DNA of 64,000 bases from an uncultured Acidobacteriota bacterium (GCA_963733815.1 CAVTEG010000014.1:38861-102860), one strand, 5' to 3'. Positions 6,667-33,646 are shown, counted from the stretch's first letter. Program-made: numbers and translations. Notes: generated by a model not told the origin, from the sequence alone.

Positions 6667-6883
6667 CGCTGCCAGTCTAGCGCTTGAACGTTCGACAAAA
6701 GCCCGTGCGTGGCAGAGGTCAGGCTGCGCCCGTGATTGAGATGCAGGAGCCTGCAGGCGTGCAACGGGAATTGCCGGGGTCGGTCCCGAGCAAGTCAAGG
6801 GGTTACGTCTTGAGACGTGACCCCTTTTTCTTAAGACCGGAAATCGTGCCGGGCGCCATTCGCTAGTCGAAGGCCGACGGCTT

Positions 6884-7111: not shown

Positions 7112-7282
7112 TCCCGGTTCTTAGCTAGAGTGAGGACCCGTCTGACGTCTCAAGAGTCAGCTTCGGGTGTGCTCGCACGATCAACGCCGCAGGGATCAAC
7201 AACGGCAGGCAGCCTCGTGCGGCATGATGCGCAGCCCCGGCATGTCCCGGCCTCTTCGTGCGTGCCCGAACCGTGTGCGGCG

Positions 7283-7990
7283 CTATTCGTCGAAGGGGGC
7301 ATTGATCAGCAAGTCGACAGTCGACACGGCTTTGTAGCCGGGCACGAAGCGCTCGCCAAAGTCGCGCAGGAAATTGTCGTGACTCGTTTCGGGCCTCTCC
7401 CTGACGAGGCGACCGCACGTCTCGCTGAATCTGTCCTTCATCCGCAGACGGGGGAATTCATCGAGGATGCGACCGACATCGGCTGTCTGGAGAGCGTCAA
7501 GGCCAAAGCCGCCGTAGTCGAGGCCGATGCCCATCGTGCCGACCGCCACTTCCGGCTCCTTGTGAAACGCGAGCGATGGCGTCGAGTTGAGGGCCACCAG
7601 GTCCCAGACCAGTTGCGCCTGGCGATCCGAGAGACGGCCCGTGATGAACGACCGAGCCGCGTTGGCACCGTTCACTTCGAAGCGGTTGGGGCCTGCGACA
7701 CCCGCAGTGAGGCCGATGTCGTGGAGGATCGTGCCCACAGCGACGACGTGGCCATCGTAGTCGATTTTCTTTGCGCGGCCCATCAGTTCTGCGAAGAGCC
7801 ACGAACGCATCGCGTGATTGAAGAGATACGGCTCGGAGAGCCGCCGCGCGTACTCGATCGTCGCCGTGATGAGCGGACCGTCGGGTACAGTGACGCCCGC
7901 AATCAGTCGTGTCGGGGGCGCGTTCCGATCGGTGGAGGCCGTCGCTGACGCAACCGCCGGCTGTCTGTCCTGGACCATGCGTTCACTCAT
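7283..7990 (-). CDS. HD-domain (metal-dependent phosphohydrolase) protein
   Basis: Intact 235-aa ORF with 'AVGTILHDIGL' HD motif. AAAGGAG ribosome-binding site before the ATG. Confidence 0.75.
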   Translation of the reverse strand: MSERMVQDRQPAVASATASTDRNAPPTRLIAGVTVPDGPLITATIEYARRLSEPYLFNHAMRSWLFAELMGRAKKIDYDGHVVAVGTILHDIGLTAGVAGPNRFEVNGANAARSFITGRLSDRQAQLVWDLVALNSTPSLAFHKEPEVAVGTMGIGLDYGGFGLDALQTADVGRILDEFPRLRMKDRFSETCGRLVRERPETSHDNFLRDFGERFVPGYKAVSTVDLLINAPFDE

Positions 7991-8927
7991 CGGAGATCTC
8001 CTTTGCTTCGCACTGGCTTTGAATTATCCCTCGTTGATCGCTTGACGACGCGTCGCCGTAATTGTTTATCGTTCCGGAGCCCGGTGGCCAGGAAGACCCT
8101 CCAAAGAGGCCTGCTGCTCGCCTCGGCAGCTGCAACTACAAGACCTCATCCATCGCCGTTCTGTGACATCGGCGCCGGATTTCGTAGCCCCGTTCTATCG
8201 ATTTCTTTGGAAGCCCGCCGCGGGTGTCACATCCCGGAGTGCCTCCCGGTCTTCACCAACGCAGGCGGGCCTCGGAAGATCGGGTACCCGGCGTCCAACG
8301 CGCCTGCGGGGCAAGGTTTTCGAAGAGCTGCGCAGGCTGAACGGAGGCACTCGGACGAATTCATGAACCGGTCCATCGGCCGCCCAGGGGAGGAGCGCGC
8401 GAGCCCGTTTTTGCCGTTTCCTGGGCGAATCACCCCCGAAGGAGAACGGCGCCAGGGGTGACGACGCGCTTCCTCCCCGAGGCGGATGGTCGGACAGGAT
8501 CGAGTAGCGGCACGGTACGCGACCGAACGAGTGGGAGAGGATGAAGTGCCGTGAACCCCAAGACCCTATTGCGCCATCTCCGCCGAGGTCGCCGCAGCAC
8601 AACTGGTGCGCGCCCTGAACGGCTGGCCGGTGACGATCGCCGCGTGGCAGGTGTCGACCGCTCCGTGTTCCCCCGGCTTCTGGCCGCGGGCCCGCAACGT
8701 TCGCCGGATGCTCATTGGAAGCGTCCCGCCGCGCGCCGGCGCGTCGTTCGTCGCAGCCCATCTCGACCACGACGCGTTAGATGCGGTCGCCGGGTGCGAG
8801 TTCGTCGATGATCGAATCCGGTTCCAAGGATTGACCACGGACCCTTGAGCCGGCCAGGCATGTCGTTCGCTGCTCCTGGCGCAGGGAAGTGCGATATCGC
8901 TCGCATTGCTGATGGAGTTCGACACCG

Positions 8928-18800: not shown

Positions 18801-21354
18801 TCGCCGCGGCCGCTCGGGTCGTCCTTCTCTCGCGGCATGGCACGCTGGCGGAGCAGGTCCTGCGTCTGTTGAGACGCGCTCCCGCGCCGCGGGCGCCCGA
18901 GGCGGTCCTCGCTCGGGCGCCGGACCTGGACATCCCTCCTCCGCGCCTTCCCTTGCAGTTCTTCAATGGGCTCGGTGGCTTCTCCGAAGACGGTAGCGAG
19001 TACGTCACGATCCTCGGGGAGCGCCACCAGTGGACCCCGGCGCCCTGGATCAACGTCCTCGCCAACGCGAACTTCGGCTGTCTCGTCTCGGAATCGGGAT
19101 CCGGCTACACGTGGGCCGGAAACAGCCGGGAGAACCAGCTCACGCCCTGGTCGAACGACCCGGTGAGCGATCCTCCGGGAGAGGCCTTCTTCCTGAGGGA
19201 CGAAGAGACGGGGGAGATCTGGAGCCCGACGCCGTTGCCGGCTCGGGGCGACGGGTCCTACGTAGTGCGCCATGGCCAGGGCTACAGCCGCTTCGAATAC
19301 GAGCACGGACGAGTCGCCACGGACCTCACCGTTTTCGTGGCCCGGGAGGACCCCGTCAAGATCTCGCGCCTGTCGGTCGAGAACCGATCCGCTTCGACCC
19401 GGACGCTGACCGTCACCGCCTACGCGGAGTGGGCTCTCGGCCCGCAGAGAGCGGCCGCCGCGCCTTTCGTCGTCACCGACCTCGACGCCGAGACGGGCGC
19501 GATTTTTGCGCGCAACTCCTGGAACGAGGCGCACGCCGGAGGAGTCGCGTTCGCGGACGTCGGGGGCGCACAGACCGCGTGGACGGCCGATCGCACCGAG
19601 TTTCTGGGACGCAACGGCGGCCTCGAGGCCCCGGCGGGATTGGCGCGCGAAGTGATCCTCTCGCGGCGCGCCGGCGCCGGCCTTGATCCCTGCGCGGCAC
19701 TGCAGGTGCGGCTGCGCCTGGCTCCGGGTCACCGCGAGGATGTCGTCTTCCTGCTCGGCCAGGGTCGCGACCTTCCGGAGGCGCGACAGCTCGTCGCCCG
19801 TTATCGGTCGCAGGATCATGACCTCGCAGTGGCCGCGGTGCGGCAGGAGTGGGAGGACACGCTGGCTGCGCTTGAGGTCCGGACGCCCGATCGTTCGATG
19901 GACCTGTTGCTGAACCGCTGGCTTCTCTACCAGGCGCTGGGCTGTCGCTTTCGGGCGCGCGCCGCGCTGTACCAGGCGGGCGGGGCCTGGGGCTTCCGCG
20001 ACCAGCTGCAGGACGTGATGTCCTTCACGGTCGCGCGCCGCGAGCTGGCGCGCGAGCACCTGCTGCGCGCGGCGTCACGCCAGTTCGAGGAAGGCGATGT
20101 TCAACACTGGTGGCACGATCCCGGAGGCCGGGGGGTGCGAACCCGGATCTCCGACGATCTGCTGTGGCTCGCCTACGCGACCCACCACTATGTCGAGATC
20201 ACCGGCGATCACGGCGTGCTCGACGAGCAGGTTCCGTTCCTCGTGGCGGCGCCACTCGAGCCGGGGGAGACCGATCGGTACTTCCAGCCGGGGAGTCGTC
20301 CGAAAGGGCGTCTCTTTTCGAGCATTGCGCGCGAGCCCTGGATCGGAGCCTCGAGGTCGGCCGCCACGGGCTTCCGCTGATGGGCACCGGAGACTGGAAC
20401 GACGGGATGAACCGGGTGGGCGCAGGGGGTCAGGGCGAGAGCGTCTGGCTGGGCTGGTTCCTCCATACCAACCTGGTCGAGTTCGCCGCTTTCGCCGAGT
20501 GCCGCGGAGAGAGCGAGCGCGCGGGCGTGTGGCGCAACCACGCCGCTTCGTTGAAGACGGCGCTCGATCGCGACGGGTGGGACGGCGACTGGTATCGCCG
20601 CGCCTTCTTCGACGACGGGACGCCGCTGGGATCCGCGAGCAACGATGAGTGCCGCATCGACTCGATCGCGCAGTCCTGGGCCGTCATTTCGGGCGCCGCG
20701 GATCCCGATCGGGCCCGGAGGGCCATGGCGGCCGTCGACGAGCACCTGATCCGGCGGGGAGACGGGCTCGTTCTGCTCTTCGCCCCCCCATTCGACCGCA
20801 CGGCCCTCGAGCCCGGGTACATCAAGGGATACGTCCCCGGCGTGCGCGAAAATGGGGGACAGTACACGCACGCCGCGGTCTGGGCCATGATCGCCTTTGC
20901 GGCGCTCGGCGACGGCGACAAGGCGGGAGAGCTCTTCGCGATCCTGAACCCGATCAACCACGCCAGCACGCGCTCGGGCCTGTATCGCTACAAGGTCGAG
21001 CCCTACGTGATGGCCGGCGATGTCTACTCGGAGCTCCCCCACGCGGGCCGGGGCGGCTGGAGCTGGTACACGGGCTCCGCCGGTTGGATGTACCGCGCGG
21101 GCGTCGAGTGGATCCTGGGCTTCCGTCTGCGCGGCACGGTCCTCCACGTGGACCCATGCATCCCCCGCGCGTGGCCGCGGTACGAGATCGATTTTCGTTA
21201 CCATTCTGCCCGCTACCGGCTCTCGGTGGAGAACCCACGGGGCGCGATGCGCGGCGTGACCAGCATCTCGCTCGACGGCGGACCGGTCACGGGCCGCGAG
21301 ATCCCGCTGGCCGATGATGGCCGCGAGCATCGGATCGAGGTCGTGCTGGGCTAG
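12813..21354 (+). pseudogene. Cyclic beta-1,2-glucan synthase (NdvB/ChvB/Cgs)-like giant gene: N-terminal membrane/GT84 part plus C-terminal GH94 glucan phosphorylase part, with about 20 frame changes
   Basis: Colinear homology is spread over all three plus frames. Examples: 'SELFSTEHLEQFAGAL', 'AEWLLNNFHIVEEQIREIQEDLP', 'YVVTLDADTRLPREAVRRMVGTISHPLN', 'HRWVRGDWQLLPW', 'FFNWYDTESLLPLEPRYVSTVDSGNLAGHL', 'SWSGSMFEYLMP', 'YTWAGNSRENQLTPWSNDPV', 'QHWWHDPGGRGVRTRISDD', 'GTGDWNDGMN', 'VRENGGQYTHAAVW'. It ends at the TAG at 21352-21354. Confidence 0.85.
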
Positions 21355-21531: not shown

Positions 21532-22218
21532 TCACACGGGAGCGGGCCGTCCGATCAGGTTGTGCTGGTACGCAAACACCACGGCCGCGAGCTTGCTGTG
21601 GACTTGGAGCTTGATCAGGATTTTGCTCACATGGTTGCGAACGGTGACCTCCGCGATGGAAAGCGCTTCGCCGATCTCAGCGGACCTCAACCCACGGCCA
21701 AGGCCCTGCAGCACTTCCGTCTCGCGGCACGTCAGCGTGATCGTGCCCCCGTCGGGAGTTCGGGCCGGTTCCAGCGAGTCCATGTCCATGGAACGGCCTT
21801 TCGTTTCGCTGGCCGACCGCCGTATTTCGGGTTCCCGGCAAATGTGCACGAGAGTGGCCAATGCCGGATGGTAAGACTCGATCGCGAAGAGAGAAGTGGC
21901 AATTGTCTTTCTCGACCCGTCGCCGGTCTTGACCTCGAGTTCGAAGGGACAAACGTGATGATCCCGTCCGGTCCGCGCCTGACCCGCCACAGGGCAGCTC
22001 AGTTGGCAGTAGTGGTTCCCGTTGGCGTCCCGGCCGTCCAGGACCTCGTAGCATCGTTTTCCCATGACGGCTCTCGCGGGCTGGCCAAAGAGCGCCTCGG
22101 AAGCCTTGTTCCAATGGATGATGCGATTGCTCGCGTCCATCGCAAACATCGCCTCACCCCGGCGGGAGATGGCATCCAGCGTCTCATGGAGTGGTCCCAT
22201 CGAGCCCCTTGCGGCCAT
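21532..22218 (-). CDS. PAS-domain LuxR-family transcriptional regulator
   Basis: PAS-like N-terminal region ('AMFAMDASNRIIHWNKASEALFG') plus a C-terminal LuxR HTH ('LTCRETEVLQGLGRGLRSAEIGEALSIAEVTVRNHVSKILIKLQV'). I prefer the ATG at 22218, because the 22257 'M' is a TTG inside the upstream motif. Confidence 0.8.
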   Translation of the reverse strand: MAARGSMGPLHETLDAISRRGEAMFAMDASNRIIHWNKASEALFGQPARAVMGKRCYEVLDGRDANGNHYCQLSCPVAGQARTGRDHHVCPFELEVKTGDGSRKTIATSLFAIESYHPALATLVHICREPEIRRSASETKGRSMDMDSLEPARTPDGGTITLTCRETEVLQGLGRGLRSAEIGEALSIAEVTVRNHVSKILIKLQVHSKLAAVVFAYQHNLIGRPAPV

Positions 22219-22251
22219 CACGTCGCAGATTACAAGCCGCCGCGGAACGGC

Positions 22252-22282
22252 GTCCAATCGTTTGTTCTACTCGATTCAAGGC
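22252..22282 (-). promoter_or_regulatory. Conserved element copy a (minus strand: cttgaatcgagtagAACAAACGATTGGAC)
   Basis: TTGGAC at 22257-22252, a 17-nt spacer, then TGTAAT at 22234-22229. The regulator ATG is 10 nt further on. Confidence 0.6.
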
Positions 22283-22353
22283 GTCGTAACGATCGACCGT
22301 CGCGCCCGGAAGCCGGGCCCTGCGCGCTGCTCTCCCGCTTCCGATTTTTCACG

Positions 22354-22383
22354 TCTCAAATCGAGAGGAACAAACGATTGGAA
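22354..22383 (+). promoter_or_regulatory. Conserved element copy b (tctcaaatcgagaggAACAAACGATTGGAA)
   Basis: Divergent from copy a, about 100 bp away. An ATG at 22403 begins 19 nt after the TTGGAA hexamer. Confidence 0.55.
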
Positions 22384-22461
22384 GGAAAGCGCCGGAGCGT
22401 ACATGATCCGCTCGTCGATGAAGACTCTCGGAACGAGAAGGGACAAGACACGGAAACCGTA

Positions 22462-22530
22462 GTGATCGTTTTGATCGTACTCTTTCTTCTCGGTGGCGGA
22501 GGATACTGGTACCGGAGCAGACGGGCCTGA
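22462..22530 (+). CDS. Tiny membrane peptide (VIVLIVLFLLGGGGYWYRSRRA), possibly one ~41-aa ORF together with 22403..22462
   Basis: The hydrophobic helix plus GGGGYW-RSRR tail resembles small membrane proteins of the DUF3309 type. The upstream mini-ORF MIRSSMKTLGTRRDKTRKP* overlaps it as TAGTG. Confidence 0.35.
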   Translation: MIVLIVLFLLGGGGYWYRSRRA

Positions 22531-22679
22531 CGTCAGCGTCGAGCGCAGAGCCTGACCCATGCCGCACGGCGACCTCGGCCGGGGAGATGCCACGATGAAA
22601 CGAGGCGTCGCATAGTGGATCGATCACCGGCAGGCGGTCGCCCGGCGGCGATTCGCGGAACAGACGGAGCACGCCCCCT

Positions 22680-23408
22680 GTGAGAGCGGGATCGCTCGGC
22701 CGGTCATCCCGGGTCTCCAGGGGCCACGCGGAAGGGCACCGCACCGGGCGCATCGGCTGGTTGCGCGCGGCCGTGCTGGGCGCCAACGACGGCATCGTCT
22801 CCACGGCGAGTCTCGTGCTCGGTGTCGCTGCCGCGCATGCGAGCCACAGCAACGTCCTGGTCGCCGGAGTCGCGGGCCTCGTCGCCGGGGCTATGTCGAT
22901 GGCTGCCGGCGAGTACGTGTCCGTTCACTCGCAGGCAGATAGCGAGCAAGCGGCGCTCGAGCTCGAGCGGGCGGAGCTGAAGGCGGACGACGAGGGCGAG
23001 CGCTCGGAATTGGCGGCCATCTACGTCGCTCGCGGTCTCGACCGGTCGCTCGCCAGGCAGGTCGCCGATCAGCTGATGGCCCGCGACGCGCTCGGCGCGC
23101 ATGCTCGCGACGAGCTCGGCATCTCCGACACCTTCCGCGCTCGCCCGATTCAGGCGGCGCTGGCGTCGGCGGCGAGCTTTGCGGTGGGAGCAGCCATGCC
23201 TCTGTTGGTCACCGTGATGGCCCCCCCGGCCGGGTTGATCGCGCTCGTCTCGGGGACGTCTCTTCTGTTCCTCGCGCTTCTCGGCGGCCTGGCGGCGCGC
23301 GTGGGCGGCGCCGGCGTGCTCAAAGGCGCGCTGCGTGTCACGTTCTGGGGTGCGCTGGCCATGGCGCTGACCGCGGGAGTCGGGGCGCTGTTCGGGACGG
23401 CGGCCTAG
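22680..23408 (+). CDS. VIT1/CCC1-family iron/manganese transporter
   Basis: Contains 'WLRAAVLGANDGIVSTASLVLGVAAA' and 'AMSMAAGEYVSV', with a C-terminal triple-TM region. Intact, 242 aa, GTG start. Confidence 0.8.
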   Translation: MRAGSLGRSSRVSRGHAEGHRTGRIGWLRAAVLGANDGIVSTASLVLGVAAAHASHSNVLVAGVAGLVAGAMSMAAGEYVSVHSQADSEQAALELERAELKADDEGERSELAAIYVARGLDRSLARQVADQLMARDALGAHARDELGISDTFRARPIQAALASAASFAVGAAMPLLVTVMAPPAGLIALVSGTSLLFLALLGGLAARVGGAGVLKGALRVTFWGALAMALTAGVGALFGTAA

Positions 23409-23531
23409 GCGGCCTCCCGGCGTGGGGGACCACCACGCCAACCCGGCGCGTGGTCTGAGCCCGGACCTTCGTACCGAAGCGCCGTCGGCTCTGGATGACG
23501 GCAGGTGCGATCCGAGTCGATCGATTTGGCG

Positions 23532-23561
23532 TCACGAACTGAGCGTAAACAACGATTGGAC
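23532..23561 (+). promoter_or_regulatory. Conserved element copy c (tcacgaactgagcgtAAACAACGATTGGAC)
   Basis: One base shorter in the A-run. An ATG at 23581 begins 19 nt after TTGGAC. The next real gene starts at 23635. Confidence 0.5.
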
Positions 23562-23634
23562 GCGCCGGCGGCGGTTGGACATGCTGCAAGCTGCTCTGCG
23601 AACTGGAAAGACAGGGTGAGGCCGGAGGTGAGGC

Positions 23635-23979
23635 GTGACGGTGGATGTGGTGGATGAGCCCTCGGGCTTTGCGCAGACCCGATCCGGGGGTGAAAGGCAA
23701 TTGACGCGCCGCCTTCGGATGCGGTGCCGTGAGCTCATCGCCGGCTGGTCGCGTCCGCCGGCGAGGCTCGAAGTCGAAGTGCCCCGGATACAGGACATGC
23801 GTTGGACCTGTCCCGACTGCCGCTTGAGACACGAGACGATCATCGATCCCGATGCCGAGGCCGGGAAGATCGTCGAGGTGAGCTGCCGGGCCTGCGGGGC
23901 ACAACACGAAGCCTCCGTGTTCTTCCGCCGGCAGGTGGCCAGTAAGGCGCGCATGACGGTCGGCGTCGTTTGGCTTTGA
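23635..23979 (+). CDS. Small zinc-ribbon protein (WTCPDC...CRACG), probably co-transcribed with SOD
   Basis: GTG start follows a GGAGGTG ribosome-binding site. The CxxC-N22-CxxC core resembles the ORFs at 38172, 54222 and 54416. It ends 14 nt before the SOD start. An alternative start is the ATG at 23797. Confidence 0.5.
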   Translation: MTVDVVDEPSGFAQTRSGGERQLTRRLRMRCRELIAGWSRPPARLEVEVPRIQDMRWTCPDCRLRHETIIDPDAEAGKIVEVSCRACGAQHEASVFFRRQVASKARMTVGVVWL

Positions 23980-23992
23980 GTGGAGATCTCTA

Positions 23993-24631
23993 ATGGCGAC
24001 ATACACGCTTCCCGAGCTTCGATACGACTACAGCGCTCTCGAGCCCCACATATCGGGCAAGATCATGGAGCTTCACCACGACAAACACCACGCCGGCTAC
24101 GTGAAGGGGGCGAACGCCGCTCTCGAACGGCTCGGCGAGGCGCGCGACAAGGACAACTTCGACAACATCGGCGCTCTCGAGAGAGCCCTCGCGTTCAATC
24201 TGTCGGGTCACGTGCTGCACTCATTGTTCTGGAACAACCTGGCTCCGAAGGCGGGCGGACGGCCGCAGGGAGAGCTGGCGACTGTGATCCAGCAGGAATT
24301 CGGGAGCTTCGAGAAGCTCCAGAAGCAGATCAACGCCGTCGCTGGAAGCATCATGGGTTCCGGCTGGGCGGCGCTCGTGTGGGAGCCGCTCGGAAAGAAG
24401 CTGCTCGTCACTCAGATCTACGATCACCAGTCGAATCTCGCCCAGGCGGGCACTCCGTTGCTCGTGCTCGACGCGTGGGAGCACGCGTTCTATCTGCAGT
24501 ATCAGAACCGCAAGACCGAGTTCTTCGACGCGGTGTGGAACGTTTGGAACTGGGCCGACGTGGCCGAGCGCTTCCAGGCGGCATGCCGGGTCAACATAGA
24601 GCTCGTCGGCGCGGGGATTGGGGTCGACTAG
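23993..24631 (+). CDS. Fe/Mn superoxide dismutase
   Basis: Contains 'LPELRYDYSALEPHISGKIMELHHDKHH' and 'DAWEHAFYLQYQNRK'. Intact, 212 aa. Confidence 0.95.
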   Translation: MATYTLPELRYDYSALEPHISGKIMELHHDKHHAGYVKGANAALERLGEARDKDNFDNIGALERALAFNLSGHVLHSLFWNNLAPKAGGRPQGELATVIQQEFGSFEKLQKQINAVAGSIMGSGWAALVWEPLGKKLLVTQIYDHQSNLAQAGTPLLVLDAWEHAFYLQYQNRKTEFFDAVWNVWNWADVAERFQAACRVNIELVGAGIGVD

Positions 24632-24656
24632 AGCGGGCACCCCGCCGTAGTCACGG

Positions 24657-26270
24657 ATGCCCTTCGACCTGCTCTCTTCATTGACGCGCCGGAAGGGGCG
24701 TCTTCGGAAAAAGCTGTCACAGCGGATTCGACGTCCGCGACGACTGCTCCTCTTGCTGGTCCTCGGCCCGCTCCTGCCTCTCCTCGTCTACGTCGCGGCG
24801 GCCCGCTGGCTTCTCTCGGGACCCGGGCTCCGCTCGCTGATCAACACGGACCCCGAGACGCTGACTCTGGACTACGACGATGCGACGTCGCTCTGGCCCG
24901 GCCGCGTCACGATCCGGAACCTCCGGATCCGAGGCAGCGATCACAACGTGCAGTGGATCGTCCGGCTGGCCGATGCGCGTGTCGACTATTCGGTGCTGGC
25001 TCTCGTGGGAAGAACCTTTCGGGCCGAGCGCGTTTGCGGAACCGGTCTGTCCTTCTCCGTCCGCAACAAGCTCGAAGCTGGGGAGGCGAAGAACGCGGAC
25101 CTGTCCGTTCTGCCGCCGATTCCAGGCTTCGCCGATCCGCCGCTGCGCTCGCCGAAAACGCAGGGGGCGAAGGCCCCCGGCAATCCGTGGCGAATCGACG
25201 TCCGAAACATTCGCGTCGAACACTTCGACGACGTTTGGTTCGACGCTTACCACTACCAGGGCACGGCGCGCCTCGATGGGGCATTCTTCCTGCGGCCGGG
25301 CCTCATGGTCTGGATCGGGCCGGCGCGCGTCGCCATCGAGACCGGCGAGGTGCGCATCGGACGGGCGCCCGTCGGCGTCTCCGTATCGGGGAGCATCGAC
25401 GGAACCTTCGAGCCGTTCGAGCCGCCGAAGGTGCACGGCAGCGAGGTCTGGCAGAAGACATTCGGAGCCGTCAACCTCGACGCCCGCTTCGACCGGCTCG
25501 AGTCGCTCGAGCACCTCGTCCCTCGGGCTCGCACGCGCCTCGAAGGGGGAGCCGGCAAGGCAACATTCCGGGCTGCCATCGAGCACGGAATTGCGAAAGG
25601 CGAGCTCGGCCTCGAGGTTCACGACGGGTCGGTGCGTCTGGACAAGCTCGGGCTCCGGGGCGACGCCGACCTGCGCCTGCTCATTCCCGCGTGGAATCTG
25701 GCGACCGGTCCCCTCGAGATCTCGGGCAGCCGGGCCGCTTTCTCGAATGTCCGCGCCTCCGGTTCGGATGATTCGCGGCGCTGGTGGGGCCGGTTCGACA
25801 TTCGATCGGGGAAGATCGGCTCGACCACGACCGCCCGCATCGACGCCCAGACTCGGGATGCGCGGCCGCTGCTCGCGCTGCTCGCGGCCGACCTCCCGGC
25901 CTGGACTCGGGACCTCCTGAACCTCGACACCTTCTCCGCGACGGGCACAGTCTCCCTCGGGCCGTCACTGACCCGCCTCCGAGGCCTCGATGCCCGCGGC
26001 GGCAGCTTTCATATCCAGGGGCACTATCTCCGCGACGAGACAACCCGGGACGGCGCCTTCCTGATCGAGTCCGGCAGCCTGAGCGTCGGCCTCGAGCTGG
26101 AGCCCGCCGCGACAAAGATCAGGCTTCTCGGCGCGAAGCAGTGGTACGAGGAAGAGCGGGACGCTCGGAGCGACCTACCGAGCCCCGGTGGGGATGACAA
26201 GAGCGTTCGCATCATACGGGCAGGCTCTCATCATGCTTCAAGGACCATCGCGTCGGCTGGGTCCCGTTGA
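24657..26270 (+). CDS. Hypothetical membrane-anchored protein (N-terminal TM helix, large extracytoplasmic domain; AsmA/DUF-like)
   Basis: Intact 537-aa ORF with a basic N-terminus followed by 'LLLLLVLGPLLPLLVYVAAA'. I could not make a confident family match from sequence alone. Confidence 0.5.
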   Translation: MPFDLLSSLTRRKGRLRKKLSQRIRRPRRLLLLLVLGPLLPLLVYVAAARWLLSGPGLRSLINTDPETLTLDYDDATSLWPGRVTIRNLRIRGSDHNVQWIVRLADARVDYSVLALVGRTFRAERVCGTGLSFSVRNKLEAGEAKNADLSVLPPIPGFADPPLRSPKTQGAKAPGNPWRIDVRNIRVEHFDDVWFDAYHYQGTARLDGAFFLRPGLMVWIGPARVAIETGEVRIGRAPVGVSVSGSIDGTFEPFEPPKVHGSEVWQKTFGAVNLDARFDRLESLEHLVPRARTRLEGGAGKATFRAAIEHGIAKGELGLEVHDGSVRLDKLGLRGDADLRLLIPAWNLATGPLEISGSRAAFSNVRASGSDDSRRWWGRFDIRSGKIGSTTTARIDAQTRDARPLLALLAADLPAWTRDLLNLDTFSATGTVSLGPSLTRLRGLDARGGSFHIQGHYLRDETTRDGAFLIESGSLSVGLELEPAATKIRLLGAKQWYEEERDARSDLPSPGGDDKSVRIIRAGSHHASRTIASAGSR

Positions 26271-26416
26271 CGTCATCTCGTATGTAGTAGTCCTATGTGG
26301 TAGTCTCCGGGTGGTTCAATAGGTCGGGTCGGCTTCGAAACCTTGTCGTCGCCGTTCTTACCGTCGGGTTCTCCGACTCAGAATCATCGCTTTCAAGGAC
26401 TGTGGAGTTCACTGTC

Positions 26417-26722
26417 ATGAGATTCGCACGAAACGTCCATTTTCAGATCAAGAACGGTAAAGAACAGGAATTCAAGACTCTCCTCGAGAAGAAGGTCATC
26501 CCGATGCTCCGGAAGGAGAAGGGGTTTCTCGAAGAGCTGACGCTGGTCAACAAAGACGGCGCCCTCGGAATCAGCCTTTGGGAAGACCGCAAGAACGCCG
26601 AGGCCTATCAGTCGTCGACGTATCCCAAGGTTGTCGAGATCCTGCAGCCGGTGCTCGTCGGAACACCGAGGCTCGAGACATACGAGGTGACTGTCACGAC
26701 TCTCGAGTTCGTCACGGCTTGA
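26417..26722 (+). CDS. Small ABM-like protein, paralog of 4359..4661
   Basis: 'MRFARNVHFQIKNGKEQEFKTLLEKKVIPMLRKEKGFLEELTLVN...GISLWEDRKNAEAYQSSTYP', about 60% identical to the 4359 ORF by eye. Confidence 0.7.
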   Translation: MRFARNVHFQIKNGKEQEFKTLLEKKVIPMLRKEKGFLEELTLVNKDGALGISLWEDRKNAEAYQSSTYPKVVEILQPVLVGTPRLETYEVTVTTLEFVTA

Positions 26723-26757
26723 TTCAGAGATTCGGCGCGGCGACGCGCCGATGGTTC

Positions 26758-26787
26758 AGAGGCCCCGAAAGGGGCCTCTTCTTTTTC
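26758..26787 (+). terminator. Rho-independent terminator (AGAGGCCCC-gaaa-GGGGCCTCT + T-tract)
   Basis: Same GGCCCCGAAAGGGGCC core as the terminator at 4693. Confidence 0.8.
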
Positions 26788-26933
26788 TCCCTCCGTGCTG
26801 TCCCGGATGATCGCGAGGGCCAACGGCCGATGTGTGATAACGTGTGGATTCCGACTCCTCCGGATGGACCGACTCCCCAAGACAATTGAGTGGCCCCCCG
26901 CCGGTCTCGGCGAAGAAAGTGGGGTTTTGGATC

Positions 26934-27212
26934 ATGGCTACCGAGTTCAAACGACTAAGCTGTGCAATCTGCGGACATCCGTTGGATTCCGACTGGCTCC
27001 AGGATCAGGTCAGAACTTGTGAAGCATGTGCGGCGTCTTCGCGGCGCCGTAAGGGGACAGTGCTTCGCCACTGGACCACCAATGGCCCGGCCTTCGTAGG
27101 GAAGGCGACCACGGCAGTTGCAGTGGGCGACTGGGGCCTGGCCGATTCCCGGCGGATCAGCCTGATCGGGTCGAAGCTGAAGTCGCTCGCGAGCGGGGCC
27201 GGTGCACTATGA
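26934..27212 (+). CDS. Small zinc-ribbon protein (SCAICG...CEAC)
   Basis: 92-aa ORF in a locally lower-GC stretch. Its stop overlaps the next ORF's start as ATGA. Confidence 0.4.
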   Translation: MATEFKRLSCAICGHPLDSDWLQDQVRTCEACAASSRRRKGTVLRHWTTNGPAFVGKATTAVAVGDWGLADSRRISLIGSKLKSLASGAGAL

Positions 27213-27457
27213 CGTCCCTCCTCCGACGTTGGAACTGCCGCAACTGCGGCCGGCACAACAAGACCGCAGTGGCGCGCGACGGGACCGCAAAGTGCGAGTA
27301 CTGTACAGACACGGCCGAAGTTCACCCCCTCTACCCATGGGGACCGAAACTGTATCGGTTCGCGTCGAGCCTTCTGTCCTCACTCACGAGAGGCTCGGGT
27401 TGTATTCACTGGCGGCGGGTCCTGGCGCCAGTCAGGACATGGAGGCCGAACCGCTAA
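27209..27457 (+). CDS. Small zinc-ribbon protein (WNCRNCG...CEYC)
   Basis: 82-aa ORF coupled to the preceding ORF by an ATGA overlap. It has the W-x-C-x2-C ... C-x2-C pattern seen in other mini-ORFs of this window. Confidence 0.4.
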   Translation: MTSLLRRWNCRNCGRHNKTAVARDGTAKCEYCTDTAEVHPLYPWGPKLYRFASSLLSSLTRGSGCIHWRRVLAPVRTWRPNR

Positions 27458-27548
27458 CAGTGCGGCTTCGCGCTCTCAGATCGCTTCGGCGTTCGGTGCC
27501 ACATGCGTGCGGGCCAATTTCGGTCCGCTCTTTGAAAGGTTGAGCATC

Positions 27549-28190
27549 ATGAAGAGAATCATCGGAACGGCGGCGGGTCTTTGCCTGCTGGCCGCATCAC
27601 AGGTCTTCGCGCAGACGCCGGAAAAGAAGGCGGTCGAGACGACGACGAAGCAGACCGGCGCCGGGCCGACTCTGAAGACTGAGGCGCAATCCGTGTCGGG
27701 CACGGTCCGGGAGTACGAGGCGGGCAAGAAGATCAAGCTTTCCGGTCCCGGCGACAAATCGTACTCATTCGATCTCAGCGAGAACGCTCGGGTCGAGGGA
27801 GCGATCGTCATCGGCCAGATGGCCACGGTCAATTACACGAAGGGAACCGACGGCAAGGAAACTGTCGTCGCGGTCTCCGAGGCCACGGCCAATGCAGTGA
27901 CGGCGGCCGGCGCTCCGAAGATGCATTCGGAGTCGACGACGAAGATGAGCGGCACGACAGCGAGCACGGAGACGAAAACGGAAGTCGTCATCGGAATCGT
28001 GAAGGAATACGAGGCGGGCAAGTCGATCAAGGTGACGGGGCCCGATTCCAAGGACTACAGTTTTGATCTGACCGACATGGCCGCCTTGAAAAGCGCCGTG
28101 ACTGTTGGCGAGCGCGTCAAGGTCACGTTCACGAAGTCGGACAACGGCGACAAGGCCACGACGATCGTGGCACACCCCGGTAAGGTCTGA
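27549..28190 (+). CDS. Secreted protein with an internal tandem duplication
   Basis: Signal peptide 'MKRIIGTAAGLCLLAASQVFAQ'. Two copies of 'G(T/I)V(R/K)EYEAGK(K/S)IK(L/V)(S/T)GP..K.YSFDL...V..G..V.V.(Y/F)TK'. Confidence 0.65.
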   Translation: MKRIIGTAAGLCLLAASQVFAQTPEKKAVETTTKQTGAGPTLKTEAQSVSGTVREYEAGKKIKLSGPGDKSYSFDLSENARVEGAIVIGQMATVNYTKGTDGKETVVAVSEATANAVTAAGAPKMHSESTTKMSGTTASTETKTEVVIGIVKEYEAGKSIKVTGPDSKDYSFDLTDMAALKSAVTVGERVKVTFTKSDNGDKATTIVAHPGKV

Positions 28191-28229
28191 CGAGCCGCAG
28201 TAACCCCTTTTCAGCCAATCGACGCGTCG

Positions 28230-28265
28230 GCGCCGGAAGCCATCATCTTCCGGCGCTCTTTTTTT
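28230..28265. terminator. Bidirectional terminator hairpin (GCGCCGGAAG-ccatcat-CTTCCGGCGC + T-tract)
   Basis: 10-bp perfect stem between convergent genes. The annotated LysR stop (28243) falls inside the loop. Confidence 0.7.
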
Positions 28266-29250
28266 GGGGTCGCTTGCGGCTCGGCCGGGCCCAGAGCCGA
28301 ACGGCCCGTGGCTTCGAGGGAGCGGCCATTCTTCTCCCGGCGCCGGCCGGGACGTCCGGCTGTCGGCGAGGAGTGAGTCGGATCTCGTGAAGGAATGAGG
28401 CCAACAGCGGCGAGAGGTCGTCCTGCCGGTAGATTACCCCGGATTCGGTGAACACTTCGCGGTCCTCGATGTCACGGAAGACGACCCCCGGCATCGCCCG
28501 CAGCTTGATCGCCGGGTCGACGAGGGCGATCGTCAAACCCGCGGCGACCATGCCCAGCACAGTCTCGGTTGAGGGGAGCCCGCCTTCCATCGTGATCGGC
28601 GGGCCGAACCCGGCGAGCTGAAAAATCGCCGACAGGTGGTCGTAGGAGCCCGGCGACAGGTGCCGGGGCCAGAGCGTGTAGGCTTCTTTGGACAGGTCTC
28701 GTAGCCCGATGCGGTCCCGGCGAGCCACGGGATGCTGTTCCGAGATTGCGGCCACGAGTCTCTCGCGCGCGGTGACTTCGCTGGCGATGCCCTCCGCCTC
28801 GATCGGCAGTCCCACGAATCCGATGTCGATGAGACCCTCGCGCAGCGCCGCGATCTGGGCCTCGGGTGTCAGGTTCTGAAAAAGAACCTCGACCGAGGAG
28901 GCGTGCTCCCGGAAGAGCCGCAGCGCACTGCCGAGAAACGCCCAATCCGTTTCCGGGGAAATGCCGATCACGATCTTCCGGAACTCTTCGCGCGCCGCCT
29001 CTCTCGCCAAGCCGGCCGCACGCTCGGCCGCGGCCAGGATCTCGCGCGACTCCTGGAGAAACCGCTTCCCGGCCGGCGTGAGCTCGACGTGCCGTTTGAC
29101 GCGCCGCAGCAGGTCGACTTTGAGCTCCTTTTCGAGATTTCGGATCTGCTGACTCAGCGACGATTGCGAGGTGTGCAGACGGTTCGCGGCGCGGCCGAAA
29201 TGGAGTTCCTCGGCGACCCCGACGAAATATCGAAGATGACGAAGCTCCAT
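28243..29250 (-). CDS. LysR-family transcriptional regulator
   Basis: 'MELRHLRYFVGVAEELHFGRAANRLHTSQSSLSQQIRNLEKEL' winged HTH plus a substrate-binding domain. The basic C-terminal tail may be a read-through artefact. Confidence 0.85.
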   Translation of the reverse strand: MELRHLRYFVGVAEELHFGRAANRLHTSQSSLSQQIRNLEKELKVDLLRRVKRHVELTPAGKRFLQESREILAAAERAAGLAREAAREEFRKIVIGISPETDWAFLGSALRLFREHASSVEVLFQNLTPEAQIAALREGLIDIGFVGLPIEAEGIASEVTARERLVAAISEQHPVARRDRIGLRDLSKEAYTLWPRHLSPGSYDHLSAIFQLAGFGPPITMEGGLPSTETVLGMVAAGLTIALVDPAIKLRAMPGVVFRDIEDREVFTESGVIYRQDDLSPLLASFLHEIRLTPRRQPDVPAGAGRRMAAPSKPRAVRLWARPSRKRPQKKSAGR

Positions 29251-29275
29251 AAGATCCTCTTTGATCGTTAGGCGG

Positions 29276-29305
29276 GCTGAATTCTATCGGAACAAACGAT
29301 TGGAC
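29276..29305 (+). promoter_or_regulatory. Conserved element copy d (gctgaattctatcggAACAAACGATTGGAC)
   Basis: Lies in the LysR/DsbA-like divergent intergenic region. An ATG at 29325 begins 19 nt after TTGGAC and opens a 31-codon ORF ending at the dsbA-like start region. Confidence 0.55.
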
Positions 29306-29410
29306 CTGCGCCGGCCAGGCGCCCATGCTCGTTCTCCGGGATCTCAAAGGCCTCCGAGGGAAGCTCCGGCGGTCTTGGACCGAAATTCCGCTTCCTGACC
29401 CCGGTGAAAG

Positions 29411-29965
29411 GTGCAAATGAAGAAAATGAATCGGGCGCGAAAGCTCGAGTCCCCGGTCTCTTCGAAGGACCACGTCCGGGGGTCCCCGCTCGCGAAGGTC
29501 ACTCTCGTCGGTTATGGAGACTTCACGTGCCCGGACTGTGCGAAAGCGTATCGAGACGTCAAGAAGATCCAGGCGGAAATGGGCTCCCGGCTCCGCTACG
29601 TCTTCCGCAGCTTTCCTCAAGACTCCCTTGACGAGAAGTCCGAGAGCTCCGCCGAAGCAGCGGAGTCCGCTGGGGCCCAGGGAAAGTTCTGGGAGATCCA
29701 CGATCGGATGTTCGAGAACCAGCGCGCTTCGACCCAGCTTCAGTTGGCCAAGCACGCCAGGGCGGTCGGCCTGGATGCCCGTCAGTTTCGGCGAGACATG
29801 CGGGGACACGTTCATCTGGCGAGGGTTCGCGTGGTGCGGAAAGAAGGCGTTCGGAGCGGCGTCGTTGAGGTTCCAACCTTCTTCATCAATTCCCTGCAAC
29901 ACGAGAGTGCGTTCGGTCTGGCGACGTTGCTCCCGGCAGTCCAGGCTGCGGCAGGCGGCTCGTGA
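29411..29965 (+). CDS. DsbA-family thioredoxin-fold protein (CPDC active site)
   Basis: Contains 'VTLVGYGDFTCPDCAKAY' and 'VPTFFIN'. Intact, 184 aa. Confidence 0.8.
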   Translation: MQMKKMNRARKLESPVSSKDHVRGSPLAKVTLVGYGDFTCPDCAKAYRDVKKIQAEMGSRLRYVFRSFPQDSLDEKSESSAEAAESAGAQGKFWEIHDRMFENQRASTQLQLAKHARAVGLDARQFRRDMRGHVHLARVRVVRKEGVRSGVVEVPTFFINSLQHESAFGLATLLPAVQAAAGGS

Positions 29966-30281
29966 TGACTTGCGCCTCGGTGCATCGGGCGGCGCTGTCG
30001 GCGACTCGGAGGGGCCATGGACGAAACACGCAATCACGAAGGATCGAGTGACGAGGCGAAGCAGCCGAATCCCCGAGATGCTCAAGGGTTCAAAGAGAAT
30101 CCGGCACCTAGGGACTGAAGACGCCGCCTCCGTTCCCGGAGGGCGAGGACTCCGGCGAATGGACCCGGGGCGGGGGTTCGAACGCGGCGGGCGGCCAAGG
30201 CGAAGGTCAGCGCAAGCGGTCCACGACGTAGATGCACTCTCGATTCGAGCGGCGAGCGAAGCGGCATCGATCGTTGCTTCG

Positions 30282-30311
30282 TCTGAAGTCGAGCGAAGAA
30301 AACGATTGGAC
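30282..30311 (+). promoter_or_regulatory. Conserved element copy e (tctgaagtcgagcgaAGAAAACGATTGGAC)
   Basis: Lies in an ORF-poor stretch. An ATG at 30335 begins 23 nt after TTGGAC and opens a 28-codon ORF. Confidence 0.5.
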
Positions 30312-30485
30312 GGCGCGAACTTCCTTCGCCGACAATGGAGAACCACCCGGCAAAACCCGGGAACTCTTCCAAAAGCCGCGCGCCCCGCACCGGGGGCGTT
30401 AGCGGCCCTTCCTTGTTCTGAGTTCTGAGCTCGGTTTTGAGATTCGATTCTGCCGCTCAGTGACGACTCTTCAATCGCTCTGAGG

Positions 30486-30515
30486 TCTCAACGCCAGCGA
30501 AACAAACGATTGGAT
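30486..30515 (+). promoter_or_regulatory. Conserved element copy f (tctcaacgccagcgaAACAAACGATTGGAT)
   Basis: An ATG at 30535 begins 19 nt after TTGGAT and opens a 17-codon ORF. The desaturase fragment starts at 30665. Confidence 0.5.
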
Positions 30516-30664
30516 CTGCTCTCGCCGGCGCCACATGATCGAGACGCCCACCACATTTCAGTGCGAGGCCAGGATGGAGCGCACGTGACAACGAACAAAC
30601 AGAGCAGACCAGCCGCCCGGCAACGCTCTCCGAGCCGTCGTTGCGGGATTGGGAGGGAAGGTTC

Positions 30665-30990
30665 GTGATTCGCAGGATCGAAAGGCCTTCCGAGATCGCC
30701 AATCCCGTACAGGGAAGTCGGAGAAGCTGGGTCAACATCCTGTTCCTTTCGCTGACTCCAGTCATTGGCATCGTGGGCACCGCGGCCTATGCAATCGCTT
30801 TCGGGGTCCGCTGGTGGGAGCCTGCGCTCTTCGTCGTGCTCTTCGGTCTCGTGAGCTTTTCCGTGACGGCGGGCTACCACCGCTGCTTCGCACACAAGGC
30901 CTACGTCTGCCACCCGGCCGTTCAGGTCTTCTATCTCTTCTTCGGAGCCATGGCCCTTCAGAATTCTGCCCTGAAGTGGTCCCCACTGGC
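30665..30990 (+). pseudogene. Acyl-CoA (delta-9-type) fatty-acid desaturase, N-terminal ~110 aa only
   Basis: Contains 'WVNILFLSLTPVIGIVG', 'TAGYHRCFAHKAY' (first His box) and 'FFGAMALQNSALKW'. Homology then ends before the second His box. The frame runs on without a stop into the BON gene. Confidence 0.65.
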
Positions 30991-31051
30991 GGTTCCGATC
31001 GACCCGGATTTGCCCCGTCGACGGAGCCGCTCGGAAAGATCAGAGGAACTC

Positions 31052-31375
31052 ATGAATCGTCGTACCCGAGGAATCCTGACGGTTGCCGTCACCATCACGC
31101 TCGCCCTGTTGGTCGTGGGCTGCTCGACGACCCAGACCGCGGGCCGCCAGATCGACGACACCAGCATTCACGCCGCCGTCTCGGCGAAGCTCACCTCCGA
31201 ACGCTTCTCGAACATCGTGAACATCGACATCAACGTGACCAACGGCATCGTGACGCTGGCCGGAGAGGTCCCGAACGCTCAGGTCAAGGCCGACGCGCAG
31301 AAAGAGACCCGTAAGGTCGACGGGGTCGTCCGGGTAATCAACAATCTCCAGGTCAAGTCGCCTCCGACCGCCTGA
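31052..31375 (+). CDS. BON-domain lipoprotein (OsmY-like)
   Basis: Lipobox 'LALLVVGCSTT', then 'VTNGIVTLAGEVPNAQVKADAQKETRKVDGVVRVINNLQV'. AGAGGAA ribosome-binding site before the ATG at 31052. Confidence 0.8.
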   Translation: MNRRTRGILTVAVTITLALLVVGCSTTQTAGRQIDDTSIHAAVSAKLTSERFSNIVNIDINVTNGIVTLAGEVPNAQVKADAQKETRKVDGVVRVINNLQVKSPPTA

Positions 31376-31603: not shown

Positions 31604-31630
31604 TTAGCACTCTCGATCAGGGAGTGCTGA
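31604..31630 (+). promoter_or_regulatory. CIRCE operator (HrcA binding site) upstream of groES
   Basis: TTAGCACTC-tcgatcagg-GAGTGCTGA matches the consensus TTAGCACTC-N9-GAGTGCTAA at 17 of 18 positions. Confidence 0.9.
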
Positions 31631-31705: not shown

Positions 31706-31996
31706 ATGAAGATTCGGCCACTTTACGATCGGATTCTGGTCAAGCGGCTCGAGACCGGCGAGATGAAGAAGGGCGGCATCATCATCCCGGACACCGCCAA
31801 GGAGAAGCCGATGGAAGCGGAGGTCGTCGCCGTCGGCAAGGGAAAGATCAACGAGGAAGGCAAGCAGCTTCCCCTGGACGTCAAGAAGGGCGACCGCATT
31901 CTCATCGGCAAGTACGCCGGCACCGAAATCAAAATCCACGATGAAGAGCACCTTATCCTCAAGGAGGAGGAAGTGCTCGCGGTCGTCGAGAAGTAA
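31706..31996 (+). CDS. groES: Co-chaperonin GroES
   Basis: '[16 protein letters not shown]...[13 protein letters not shown]', 96 aa. AGGAGGAA ribosome-binding site. Confidence 0.97.

Positions 31997-33646
<1,650 letters not shown>

Follow-up and report, generated by a model that had tools for sequence, protein, structure and literature searches.

A 45-nt element stands six times in the 64,000-nucleotide stretch of DNA analysed here (the window), and the analysis supports reading it as a common cis-regulatory module, promoter plus operator, for stress-type genes that are regulated together, in line with the promoter or operator role suggested in the initial annotation. As read from the sequence, each copy is a candidate 45-bp regulator-binding site joined to a predicted promoter, ahead of stress-protection genes, and many uncultured soil Acidobacteriota have the same module. 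We consider it somewhat probable that the copies are composite transcription-control modules of a candidate stress regulon activated by a LysR-type regulator (LTTR), and the cognate regulator is most likely the LysR-type protein encoded next to copy d, rather than the PAS-LuxR protein encoded beyond copy a.

The six repeats are real and non-random. A search for AACAAACGATTGGA with at most two mismatches returned exactly the six copies reported earlier, compared to 0.11 expected from shuffled sequences, and a repeat search of the window groups all six into one family. A PWM scan of the whole 64 kb found no seventh copy: scores are 57-64 bits for the six and 15 for the best match after them. The length of ~30 nt given initially has to be revised, as a further 15 nt on the upstream side belong to the element, whose 45-nt consensus is TCGATCGTTnnnACGTCTCAAtTCGAGCGAAACAAACGATTGGAC. 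The copies, all placed by the PWM, are as follows:

22252-22296, minus strand: element copy a, upstream of the PAS-LuxR gene, 63.5 bits, sequence TCGATCGTTACGACGCCTTGAATCGAGTAGAACAAACGATTGGAC
22339-22383, plus strand: element copy b, a subtype with a TTGGAA end and without the distal ATCG box
23517-23561, plus strand: element copy c, with orthologous copies in L050, L051, L027, L044 and L064
29261-29305, plus strand: element copy d, with the proximal dyad ATCG-N7-CGAT
30267-30311, plus strand: element copy e
30471-30515, plus strand: element copy f, with TTGGAT at its end; in other genomes it is the f-type copy that adjoins the LysR gene

All six are intergenic and co-oriented with the next gene, as had been noted, and the same bias holds elsewhere: in related loci an ORF on the same strand starts within 450 nt of 86 of the 88 copies. 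A strict two-ended pattern run on 185,579 species genomes matched 60 stretches, 32 of which carry full elements (31 labelled Acidobacteriota or Thermoanaerobaculia, one Alphaproteobacteria). Altogether 102 distinct copies were gathered: from the window, from one further locus and from 32 MAG contigs, of which 31 are labelled Acidobacteriota. A copy was accepted only if it had the CGATTGG core and agreed with the consensus at 17 or more of 25 positions, so the conservation of positions 34-45 is partly circular. Beyond positions 1-45, and likewise in the spacer that follows, the 102 copies show next to no information content. The copies cluster in islands, with up to 6 in surroundings of 8 kb and 9 in 20 kb at L064, and the genes behind them are orthologous between genomes: Fe/Mn SOD, DsbA-like thioredoxin, fatty-acid desaturase, BON, CsbD and Gly-zipper proteins, a ~25-aa membrane peptide, the PAS-LuxR gene and a ~80-nt candidate sRNA.

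A GC-rich, unconserved spacer of 17-19 nt separates each copy from a sigma-70-type -10 hexamer, CATGMT. The logo of this hexamer, which played no part in choosing the copies, reads C73/G23, A97, T79, G74, A58/C39, T101 among the 102 copies, and the spacer is 18 nt in 45 of them and 19 nt in 44 (18 or 19 in 89 of 102). The pattern TTGGAN(19-20)CATGMT has four matches in the window, all at element copies, where 0.03 would be expected. The predicted -10 hexamers are:

22229..22234, minus strand: TGTAAT, promoter a, spacer 17, read from the sequence
22402..22407, plus strand: CATGAT, promoter b, pattern search
23580..23585, plus strand: CATGCT, promoter c, pattern search
29324..29329, plus strand: CATGCT, promoter d, pattern search
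30331..30336, plus strand: GACAAT, promoter e, spacer 19, read from the sequence, with the same hexamer at orthologous copies
30534..30539, plus strand: CATGAT, promoter f, pattern search

The distances originally reported are thus correct (TGTAAT 17 nt past copy a, CATGMT 18 nt past b, c, d and f, GACAAT 19 nt past e), and the proposal of TTGGAC at -35 with aCATGm at -10 is upheld by A2 in 97 of 102 copies, T6 in 101 and the 18- or 19-nt spacer. The ATG lying 19 nt downstream is on this evidence a predicted -10 box and not a start codon, because the CATGMT hexamer keeps its A2 and T6. A sigma-70-family promoter is marked by A2 and T6 in a -10 hexamer about 17 bp from a -35 element, and the copies fit this description. 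The hexamer at -35, TTGGAC, agrees with TTGACA in only three of six positions, so these promoters are probably weak alone, and a consensus promoter scan does not call the element promoters. TTGGA is asymmetric and could instead be read by a dedicated sigma factor. The short GC hairpin described after each copy dissolves into a merely GC-rich spacer with zero conservation across the 102 copies. The earlier judgement that ECF, sigma-54 and CIRCE do not fit stands. For an ECF/EcfG promoter (GGAAC-N16-17-CGTT), GAAC is found at positions 30-33 and is followed 16-17 bp on by unconserved spacer, and the -10 is CATGMT; for a sigma-54 promoter (GG-N10-GC), the 18 nt past TTGGAC hold no conserved position and a sigma-70-type -10 hexamer is present.

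Within the element, the conserved patches of the 102 copies lie at positions 4-9, 15-21, 26-32 and 35-44, ~11 bp apart, with the outer arms ATCGTT and AACGAT inverted about position 22 and the promoter-proximal part best conserved. With the start assumed 7 nt past the -10 box, so that all promoter positions are relative to a predicted start, the dyad centres at positions 11 and 33 fall near -65 and -43. LTTR sites are described as 50-60 bp long, the RBS lying near -65 and the ABS at -35 (PMC8407307), and the 45-bp block, measured from predicted starts, corresponds to an extended LTTR site as defined there, which spans ~50 bp and has one sub-site near -65 and another at -35 or adjoining it. Four patches at a spacing of ~11 bp, and dyads centred near -65 and -43, give the element the geometry of a LysR-type tetramer site. 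Only d-type copies contain a clean T-N11-A dyad (ATCG-N7-CGAT; T27-N11-A39); the general consensus has T9-N11-A21 (T 93%, A 72%), and a dyad scan found weak symmetry of the arms and of the inner half-sites. Counting against an LTTR site are this weak symmetry, the best conservation lying in the promoter-proximal part, and the b-type copies that lack the distal ATCG box.

The genes and other features that surround the six copies are:

21532..22218, minus strand: PAS-LuxR (GerE) regulator gene, target of copy a (Pfam GerE and PAS)
22450..22530, plus strand: tiny membrane peptide (..IVLIVLFLLGGGGYWYRSRRA), a conserved b-type promoter target found behind a b-type element in 10 loci
22680..23408, plus strand: VIT1/CCC1-family metal transporter gene, downstream in transcription unit b (Pfam VIT1, E = 1.7e-66)
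23635..28190, plus strand: probable operon c (Pfam; synteny in related loci)
28229-28257: strong terminator closing operon c (terminator prediction)
28243..29250, minus strand: LysR-type regulator gene, 335 aa, no cysteine (Pfam HTH_1 and LysR_substrate), the proposed cognate regulator
29411..29965, plus strand: DsbA-like thioredoxin-fold gene, target of copy d (Pfam Thioredoxin_4/DSBA)
30343..30421, plus strand: candidate sRNA, with a hairpin CCCGG/CCGGG, a long GC stem and then a CCUUCCUUGUUCU tail
30641..31375, plus strand: truncated fatty-acid desaturase in in-frame fusion to a BON-domain gene, target of copy f (Pfam BON)

The PAS-LuxR start is probably the ATG at 22200, with AAGGGG 5 nt upstream; the database version of the protein (P0001) has 222 aa. 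The membrane peptide may start at the GTG at 22462, because the window has ACG and not ATG at 22450. The VIT1/CCC1-family gene is also present in 7 motif-selected related loci and 1 protein-selected locus. Operon c holds a Zn-ribbon protein, an Fe/Mn SOD (23993-24631), a 537-aa protein, an ABM domain protein, small ORFs and, as its last gene, a secreted 227-aa protein (27507-28190) whose gene has its own element in other genomes. The DsbA-like gene and LysR occur as a pair in 15 motif-selected and in 16 protein-selected loci, and an apparently full-length desaturase lies behind the f-type element in L024 and L064, the ORF in L020 running off the locus end. Copies e and f had both been placed ahead of the desaturase/BON unit, which is right for f; copy e instead fronts what reads as a conserved candidate non-coding RNA of ~80 nt, which it would drive. 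An nhmmer profile of this sRNA matched 14 loci with the element core 26-30 nt upstream, indels among the homologs disrupt every reading frame, and a terminator-like site lies at 30392-30410. Rfam 15 run over the window gave CyVA-1 at 8395-8469 as its sole gathering-level match, with none at the elements or the e-class RNA, and an E-value scan of 29200-30700 gave nothing relevant.

The LysR gene tracks the element. Between its start codon and the distal end of copy d lie 11 bp, and the corresponding distance to a divergent element is 9-15 bp in 17 of 18 motif-selected loci, L030 having 67 bp. Among 27 protein-selected orthologs (55-93% identity), 21 have the element or a variant upstream of the start codon, mostly abutting it, and one more keeps a copy degenerate only in its proximal half, which gives about 22 of 27 with a start-adjacent element; at three of the 27 loci the element lies 87-97 bp upstream, and at L084 and L087 no element was found near the gene. 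None of eight unrelated LTTR loci has an element by the start. A divergent regulator gene with an adjoining site is typical of LTTRs. At L064b and L075, where the divergent promoter is gone, the distal half is retained while the proximal half has decayed, so the distal half appears to behave like an RBS. The protein is strongly conserved, the best 120 of 3,693 matches being at least 73% identical. LysR adjacency would also be expected if LysR were merely a member of the regulon.

The initial annotation had named LysR only as a second candidate for EMSA and had taken the back-to-back copies a and b to suggest autoregulation by PAS-LuxR. Such autoregulation is not supported as the organising principle of the set, and that the PAS-LuxR protein binds the element and regulates itself through copies a and b now seems to us quite unlikely. 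Copy a is its own promoter in the window, the homolog at L064 also has an element upstream, and homologs occur in the element-rich L074 and L076 islands; in both the window and L064, however, the gene has the same place behind an element as the remaining targets, and the three closest homolog loci (66-70% identity) have no element within 10 kb on either side. PAS-LuxR is present in only 1 of 33 acidobacterial comparison loci compared to 19 of 33 for LysR. GerE-type dimers usually bind short palindromes, and such a dimer leaves the 45-bp four-patch site unexplained, the proximal half of the element not being palindromic.

A less remote alternative, though still a doubtful one, is that a dedicated alternative (general-stress) sigma factor reads TTGGAC-N18/19-CATGMT, with the upstream 35 bp UP-like or architectural and LysR a mere regulon member. 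TTGGA and the -10 hexamer are nearly invariant and differ from TTGACA/TATAAT, and the spacer exceeds the sigma-A optimum; the regulon content also resembles that of sigma-B, RpoS and EcfG regulons, with its CsbD-like, BON/OsmY-like, Gly-zipper, SOD and small membrane proteins and an embedded secondary regulator, but in both sequence and spacing the motif departs from sigma-B, RpoS and ECF promoters. Such a sigma factor would leave unexplained the base-specific C/G conservation out to -72 in four phased patches, and it predicts neither that the LysR start should lie at a constant 9-15 bp from the element nor that the distal half should survive the decay of the promoter half. The genes annotated in two islands, L064 and the window, include no sigma gene. 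This reading is compatible with LTTR binding, and the 45-bp upstream site and the adjacent LTTR gene argue for an activator rather than, or besides, a sigma switch. It is highly improbable that the copies lack promoter function and are instead either dispersed repeats of a mobile or structural kind (MITE- or REP-like) or a motif of a transcribed RNA: there are multiple near-identical 45-nt copies within 8 kb with weakly inverted outer arms, but orthologous positions and genes keep their copies in genomes whose proteins are only 55-90% identical, the copies share the orientation of the next gene both in the window and in related loci, the -10 hexamer stands at a fixed distance, the flanks are unconserved and an Rfam match is absent.

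An LTTR-activated regulon of this kind would resemble known systems in part. OxyR of E. coli has the operator ATAG-N7-CTAT-N7-ATAG-N7-CTAT and controls a multi-promoter protective regulon with a thiol-disulfide oxidoreductase, metal homeostasis genes and the small RNA oxyS. The element likewise has four half-sites in a 37-bp geometry on one helix face that reaches the -35 region, a divergent regulator gene with the site covering its own promoter region, and a multi-promoter protective set that includes the same three kinds of product. It differs in its half-sites (ATCG/CGAT, not ATAG/CTAT), in the invariant TTGGA positioned at -35, and in that the targets found include neither a catalase nor a peroxiredoxin gene. 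The window LysR is not OxyR itself, as it lacks any cysteine (the redox sensors C199/C208 are absent) and scores 89.5 bits with NF008361 against a cut-off of 329. LTTRs of the BenM/CatM/CbnR/AlsR type have a site 1 near -65 and a site 2 near -43. The best relatives of the window LysR are AlsR (248 bits), HcaR (174) and BenM (126), and BenM and CbnR are its PDB matches (E = 1e-34 to 1e-30); it scores far below all equivalog cut-offs and so is not an ortholog of any named LTTR. The dyad centres predicted near -65 and -43 agree with where the RBS and the activated ABS of LTTRs classically lie (PMC8407307). Regulators of the BenM/CatM/CbnR/AlsR type control one or two catabolic operons, whereas the window LysR may control up to nine stress-gene promoters, and in their sites the distal RBS is better conserved, while in the element it is the proximal site.

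We favour a tetrameric LTTR, encoded at 28243-29250, that would bind positions 1-40 at four half-sites ~11 bp apart (ATCG-N7-GTCT-N7-AGCG-N7-CGAT), the site passing straight into the invariant TTGGA(C) at -35 with a sigma-70-family CATGMT 18-19 bp on. In its active conformation on the -43 dyad, the protein would recruit RNA polymerase and switch the promoters on rather than repress them, and on the copy that abuts its own start codon it would repress its own gene. The inducing signal is probably oxidative, desiccation or osmotic stress. The regulon would form a compact island of protective functions in these bacteria, made up of SOD, the DsbA-like oxidoreductase, the VIT1 metal transporter, the desaturase, BON, CsbD and Gly-zipper proteins, the tiny membrane peptide, a secondary regulator (PAS-LuxR) and a small RNA.

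With at most two mismatches, the 14-mer AACAAACGATTGGA matches the window 6 times compared to the 0.11 matches predicted from shuffles, and these are exactly the six copies that the initial annotation had listed. The repeat is real, and its extent had been underestimated at about 30 nt: alignment and repeat finding both show that the similarity runs 15 nt further upstream, giving an element of 45 nt. A position weight matrix built from the six copies, which score 57-64 bits, found no seventh copy in the whole 64 kb, the next match scoring 15. All six copies lie between genes and point at the next gene, as had been proposed. They sort into orthologous classes, each of which precedes the same gene in different genomes:

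22252-22296, minus strand: copy a, 45 nt; a class, target the PAS-LuxR regulator gene, also in L064 (a comparison locus of 20 kb around a PAS-LuxR homolog)
22339-22383, plus strand: copy b, 45 nt; b class, target a membrane peptide of ~25 aa, M(G/E)TIVIVLLVLFLLGGGGYWYR
23517-23561, plus strand: copy c, 45 nt; c class, target a Zn-ribbon protein, Fe/Mn SOD and downstream genes
29261-29305, plus strand: copy d, 45 nt; d class, target a DsbA-like thioredoxin
30267-30311, plus strand: copy e, 45 nt; e class, target a conserved non-coding stretch
30471-30515, plus strand: copy f, 45 nt; f class, target a fatty-acid desaturase or DUF6600 protein

Further targets of the element are BON and CsbD-like proteins, a Gly-zipper protein, a Met-rich secreted protein and a secreted protein of 228 aa. 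Together with the divergent LysR gene (28243-29250, minus strand), the six promoters cover nearly all genes at 21.5-31.4 kb.

The membrane-peptide gene (22450-22530, plus strand) has ACG in place of the ATG of ten orthologs. This reflects either a mutated start codon or an error in sequencing, and translation may begin instead at the GTG of 22462. At 22590-22680 (plus strand) lies what remains, interrupted by an in-frame stop, of a gene of ~140 aa (KRDIALWIDHRQAVIAAV...) that matches no Pfam family; the comparison loci L020, L044, L050 and L060 have it intact behind b-type elements. A GH94/glucoamylase cyclic-glucan-synthase-like gene at 13617-21354 (plus strand) is broken into four ORFs and the desaturase at 30641-31040 (plus strand) is truncated, while both are intact in L064 (2837 aa, and FA_desaturase of 311 aa, respectively); in the window they may be pseudogenes or carry long-read frameshift errors of the assembly. 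The adjoining heat-shock operon, groES (31706-31996) and groEL (32009-33646), is preceded by a CIRCE operator, TTAGCACTC-N9-GAGTGCTGA (31604-31630, plus strand), and is predicted to be under HrcA-type control, not that of the element. The sole Rfam match in the window is a CyVA-1 RNA (RF02965; 8395-8469, plus strand; 47.4 bits, gathering score 41.4).

Across 102 distinct copies, whose consensus is TCGATCGTTnnnACGTCTCAAtTCGAGCGAAACAAACGATTGGAC, conservation sets in sharply at position 1 and stops at 45, the 24 nt upstream and 18 nt downstream carrying essentially no information, and it falls into four patches (4-9, 15-21, 26-32 and 35-44) spaced ~11 bp apart. The best-conserved part is the proximal one and not the putative distal sub-site (RBS) of a LysR-type operator. 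The conservation of positions 34-45 is in part built in, since copies were gathered by a CGATTGG core (at most one mismatch) plus agreement with 17 or more of 25 consensus positions; this bias does not touch the boundaries, the distal patches or the -10 logo. The outer arms, ATCGTT (4-9) and AACGAT (35-40), form an inverted repeat around position 22 in a self-symmetry analysis of the weight matrix; the half-site arrangement given below is a tentative model. A clean T-N11-A dyad is present in d-type copies only, and the distal ATCG box is absent from b-type copies.

An unsupervised search of the 45 nt downstream, which had not been used for selection, returned a single motif, (C/G)-A-T-G-(A/C)-T, with counts among the 102 copies of C73/G23, A97, T79, G74, A58/C39 and T101, starting 18 nt after TTGGAC in 45 copies and 19 nt after it in 44. 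An A at position 2 and a T at position 6 characterise sigma-70-family -10 hexamers, and this identifies the ATG 19 nt past the hexamer as a -10 box. The initial annotation had correctly placed this ATG at the -10 position. A role for it as the start codon of small ORFs was rejected: about a quarter of the copies have no ATG there (GATCAT, GACAAT, TGTAAT), 26% lacking its G, and the frames downstream vary in length among orthologs and are not conserved. TTGGAC agrees with TTGACA at 3 of 6 positions, and a scan with the canonical sigma-70 consensus did not call the element promoters; the poor -35 and the missing call would both fit dependence on an activator. No tRNA genes, sought as a housekeeping-promoter comparison, were found in the window.

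We scanned 185,579 species-representative genomes with the two-ended pattern GATCGWT-N21-A-N3-AACGATTGGA, for which our own arithmetic predicts ~35 chance matches. Sixty stretches matched. The full element is present in 32 of them, of which 31 bear an Acidobacteriota or Thermoanaerobaculia label and one an Alphaproteobacteria label; the remaining 28 are spread over unrelated taxa and lack the other conserved positions. Extra copies missed by the strict pattern bring the count within 8-kb stretches to 4-6 per locus in L020, L021, L024, L044, L050, L054, L055, L059 and L060, and L064 holds nine elements. The alphaproteobacterial label belongs to a MAG contig, L030 (CAVYTN010000002.1), which carries at 2448-7430 a LysR ortholog (66% identical), two full elements and a DsbA-like gene, and could reflect horizontal transfer or mis-binning. 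Palindromic relatives at L098 9171-9217, L078 43-87 and L098 1411-1455 have the outer arms GATCGTTT ... AAACGATC in common with the element, differ in the interior and lack TTGGAC; a paralogous regulator may bind them.

Which regulator reads the element? Homologs of both the PAS-LuxR and the LysR protein come from Acidobacteriota MAGs, some labelled Thermoanaerobaculia or Vicinamibacteria. The PAS-LuxR protein, favoured by the initial annotation, had to be demoted as anchor: none of the three loci with its closest homologs (L001-L003; 66-70% identity) has an element within 10 kb on either side, and only 1 motif-selected comparison locus encodes it. Orthologs of the window's LysR protein, by comparison, occur in 19 such loci; in 17 of the 18 that include the start codon, this codon is 9-15 bp from the distal end of a divergent element, the exception being L030 (67 bp). 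The unbiased test used metagenome loci fetched by LysR protein similarity alone, which gave upstream DNA for 27 orthologs (55-93% identity). The element or a recognisable variant lies upstream of the start codon, mostly abutting it, in 21/27; one has an adjacent copy degenerate in its promoter-proximal half only, three have an element 87-97 bp upstream and two have none upstream. None of 8 unrelated LysR-type (LTTR) loci (24-49% identity) has the element. Decayed copies beside LysR genes (L064b, L075) have kept the distal half and lost the proximal half, a pattern that would fit an anchoring RBS in the distal half. Relatives of LysR (65-72% identity) on the short contigs L077, L078, L092 and L097 abut variant elements with AAGAATTGGAC, AAGGATTGGAC or CAGAATTGTAC in place of the proximal box AACGATTGGAC, and the regulator and its putative site may co-vary. 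In the orientation of the LysR-coding strand, d-type elements (29261-29305 and orthologous copies) have at their centre (element positions 26-21) TAGAAT, TAAGAT, TACAAT or TAGGAT, a good predicted -10 for a lysR promoter within the operator; f-type copies abutting lysR have no such central hexamer on that strand.

The LysR protein is cysteine-free and strongly conserved, with identity of at least 73% in the best 120 of 3,693 matches. It is nearest to the AlsR/HcaR/BenM/CbnR group and far under all equivalog cut-offs, including that of OxyR; this score and the absent cysteine rule out an OxyR identity. If transcription is assumed to begin 7 nt past the -10 box, the 37-bp core ATCG-N7-GTCT-N7-AGCG-N7-CGAT reaches from about -72 to -36 and its dyads are centred near -65 and -43, which is also the geometry of the OxyR consensus. 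LTTR sites span 50-60 bp, with the RBS near -65 and the proximal sub-site (ABS) at -35 (PMC8407307), and the layout of the core, counted from the assumed start, is the same as theirs. We propose that an LTTR tetramer would bind the element and, when active, would sit on the -43 dyad beside TTGGA and recruit RNA polymerase to the poor -35 promoter; on the copy abutting its own gene, it would repress itself. The main rival is a dedicated sigma factor that reads the promoter, alone or together with the LTTR, and the asymmetric TTGGA might suit such a factor. A mobile repeat or RNA motif is effectively excluded, being contradicted by the orthologous placement, the fixed orientation and the -10 logo. 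For the proposed LTTR regulon, the protective gene set suggests oxidative, desiccation or osmotic stress as the signal.

The stretch behind copy e is a candidate sRNA:

30343-30421, plus strand: candidate sRNA with a short hairpin, a long GC stem and a CCUUCCUUGUUCU tail; segments CCUUCCUU (tail, anti-Shine-Dalgarno-like) and AACUCAUCC

About 80 nt downstream of copy e are conserved in 14 loci, in every one of which the element core lies 26-30 nt upstream, and the reading frames are all broken by indels. The CCUUCCUUGUUCU after the GC stem is terminator-like and the single-sequence fold has z = -2.0, which makes a structured RNA plausible; there are 0 compensatory pairs among 11 sequences because these are too similar. 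Rfam searched with the elements and this RNA returned no family. A diverged copy in L064 (4423-4500) follows straight after the stop of a Zn-ribbon gene, not an element.

Searches of a paper library by sequence and keyword found no description of the element or regulon: the core sequence matched only primers, and searches for Acidobacteria with LysR/regulon and for the general stress response gave nothing relevant. Judged from its sequence, the element is in kind an LTTR-type operator-promoter module, which would extend known regulatory logic and not overturn it; what stands out is how many copies an island holds, how widely they occur in an under-studied phylum, and the candidate sRNA that goes with them. 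Acidobacteriota rank among the most abundant bacteria of soil, and to our knowledge almost nothing is known of their transcriptional regulation. The results supply an exact cis-element that can be tested, a named candidate for its regulator, a defined protective regulon and a candidate sRNA, all conserved over dozens of uncultured genomes. The element offers a handle on stress status in soil metatranscriptomes, and LysR with a 45-bp oligonucleotide offers an in vitro route for organisms beyond cultivation. In Firmicutes, Proteobacteria and Actinobacteria the general stress response runs via an alternative sigma factor. Our broadest reading, tentative and rather doubtful at present, is that a large uncultured Acidobacteriota clade may instead run a general protective stress response via one highly conserved, cysteine-free LysR-type master regulator whose 45-bp operator is joined to an unusual TTGGAC-N18/19-CATGMT promoter, and that an island with a dedicated regulatory sRNA (CCUUCCUU tail) and a secondary PAS-LuxR would form a layered cascade from the LTTR to the sRNA and LuxR.
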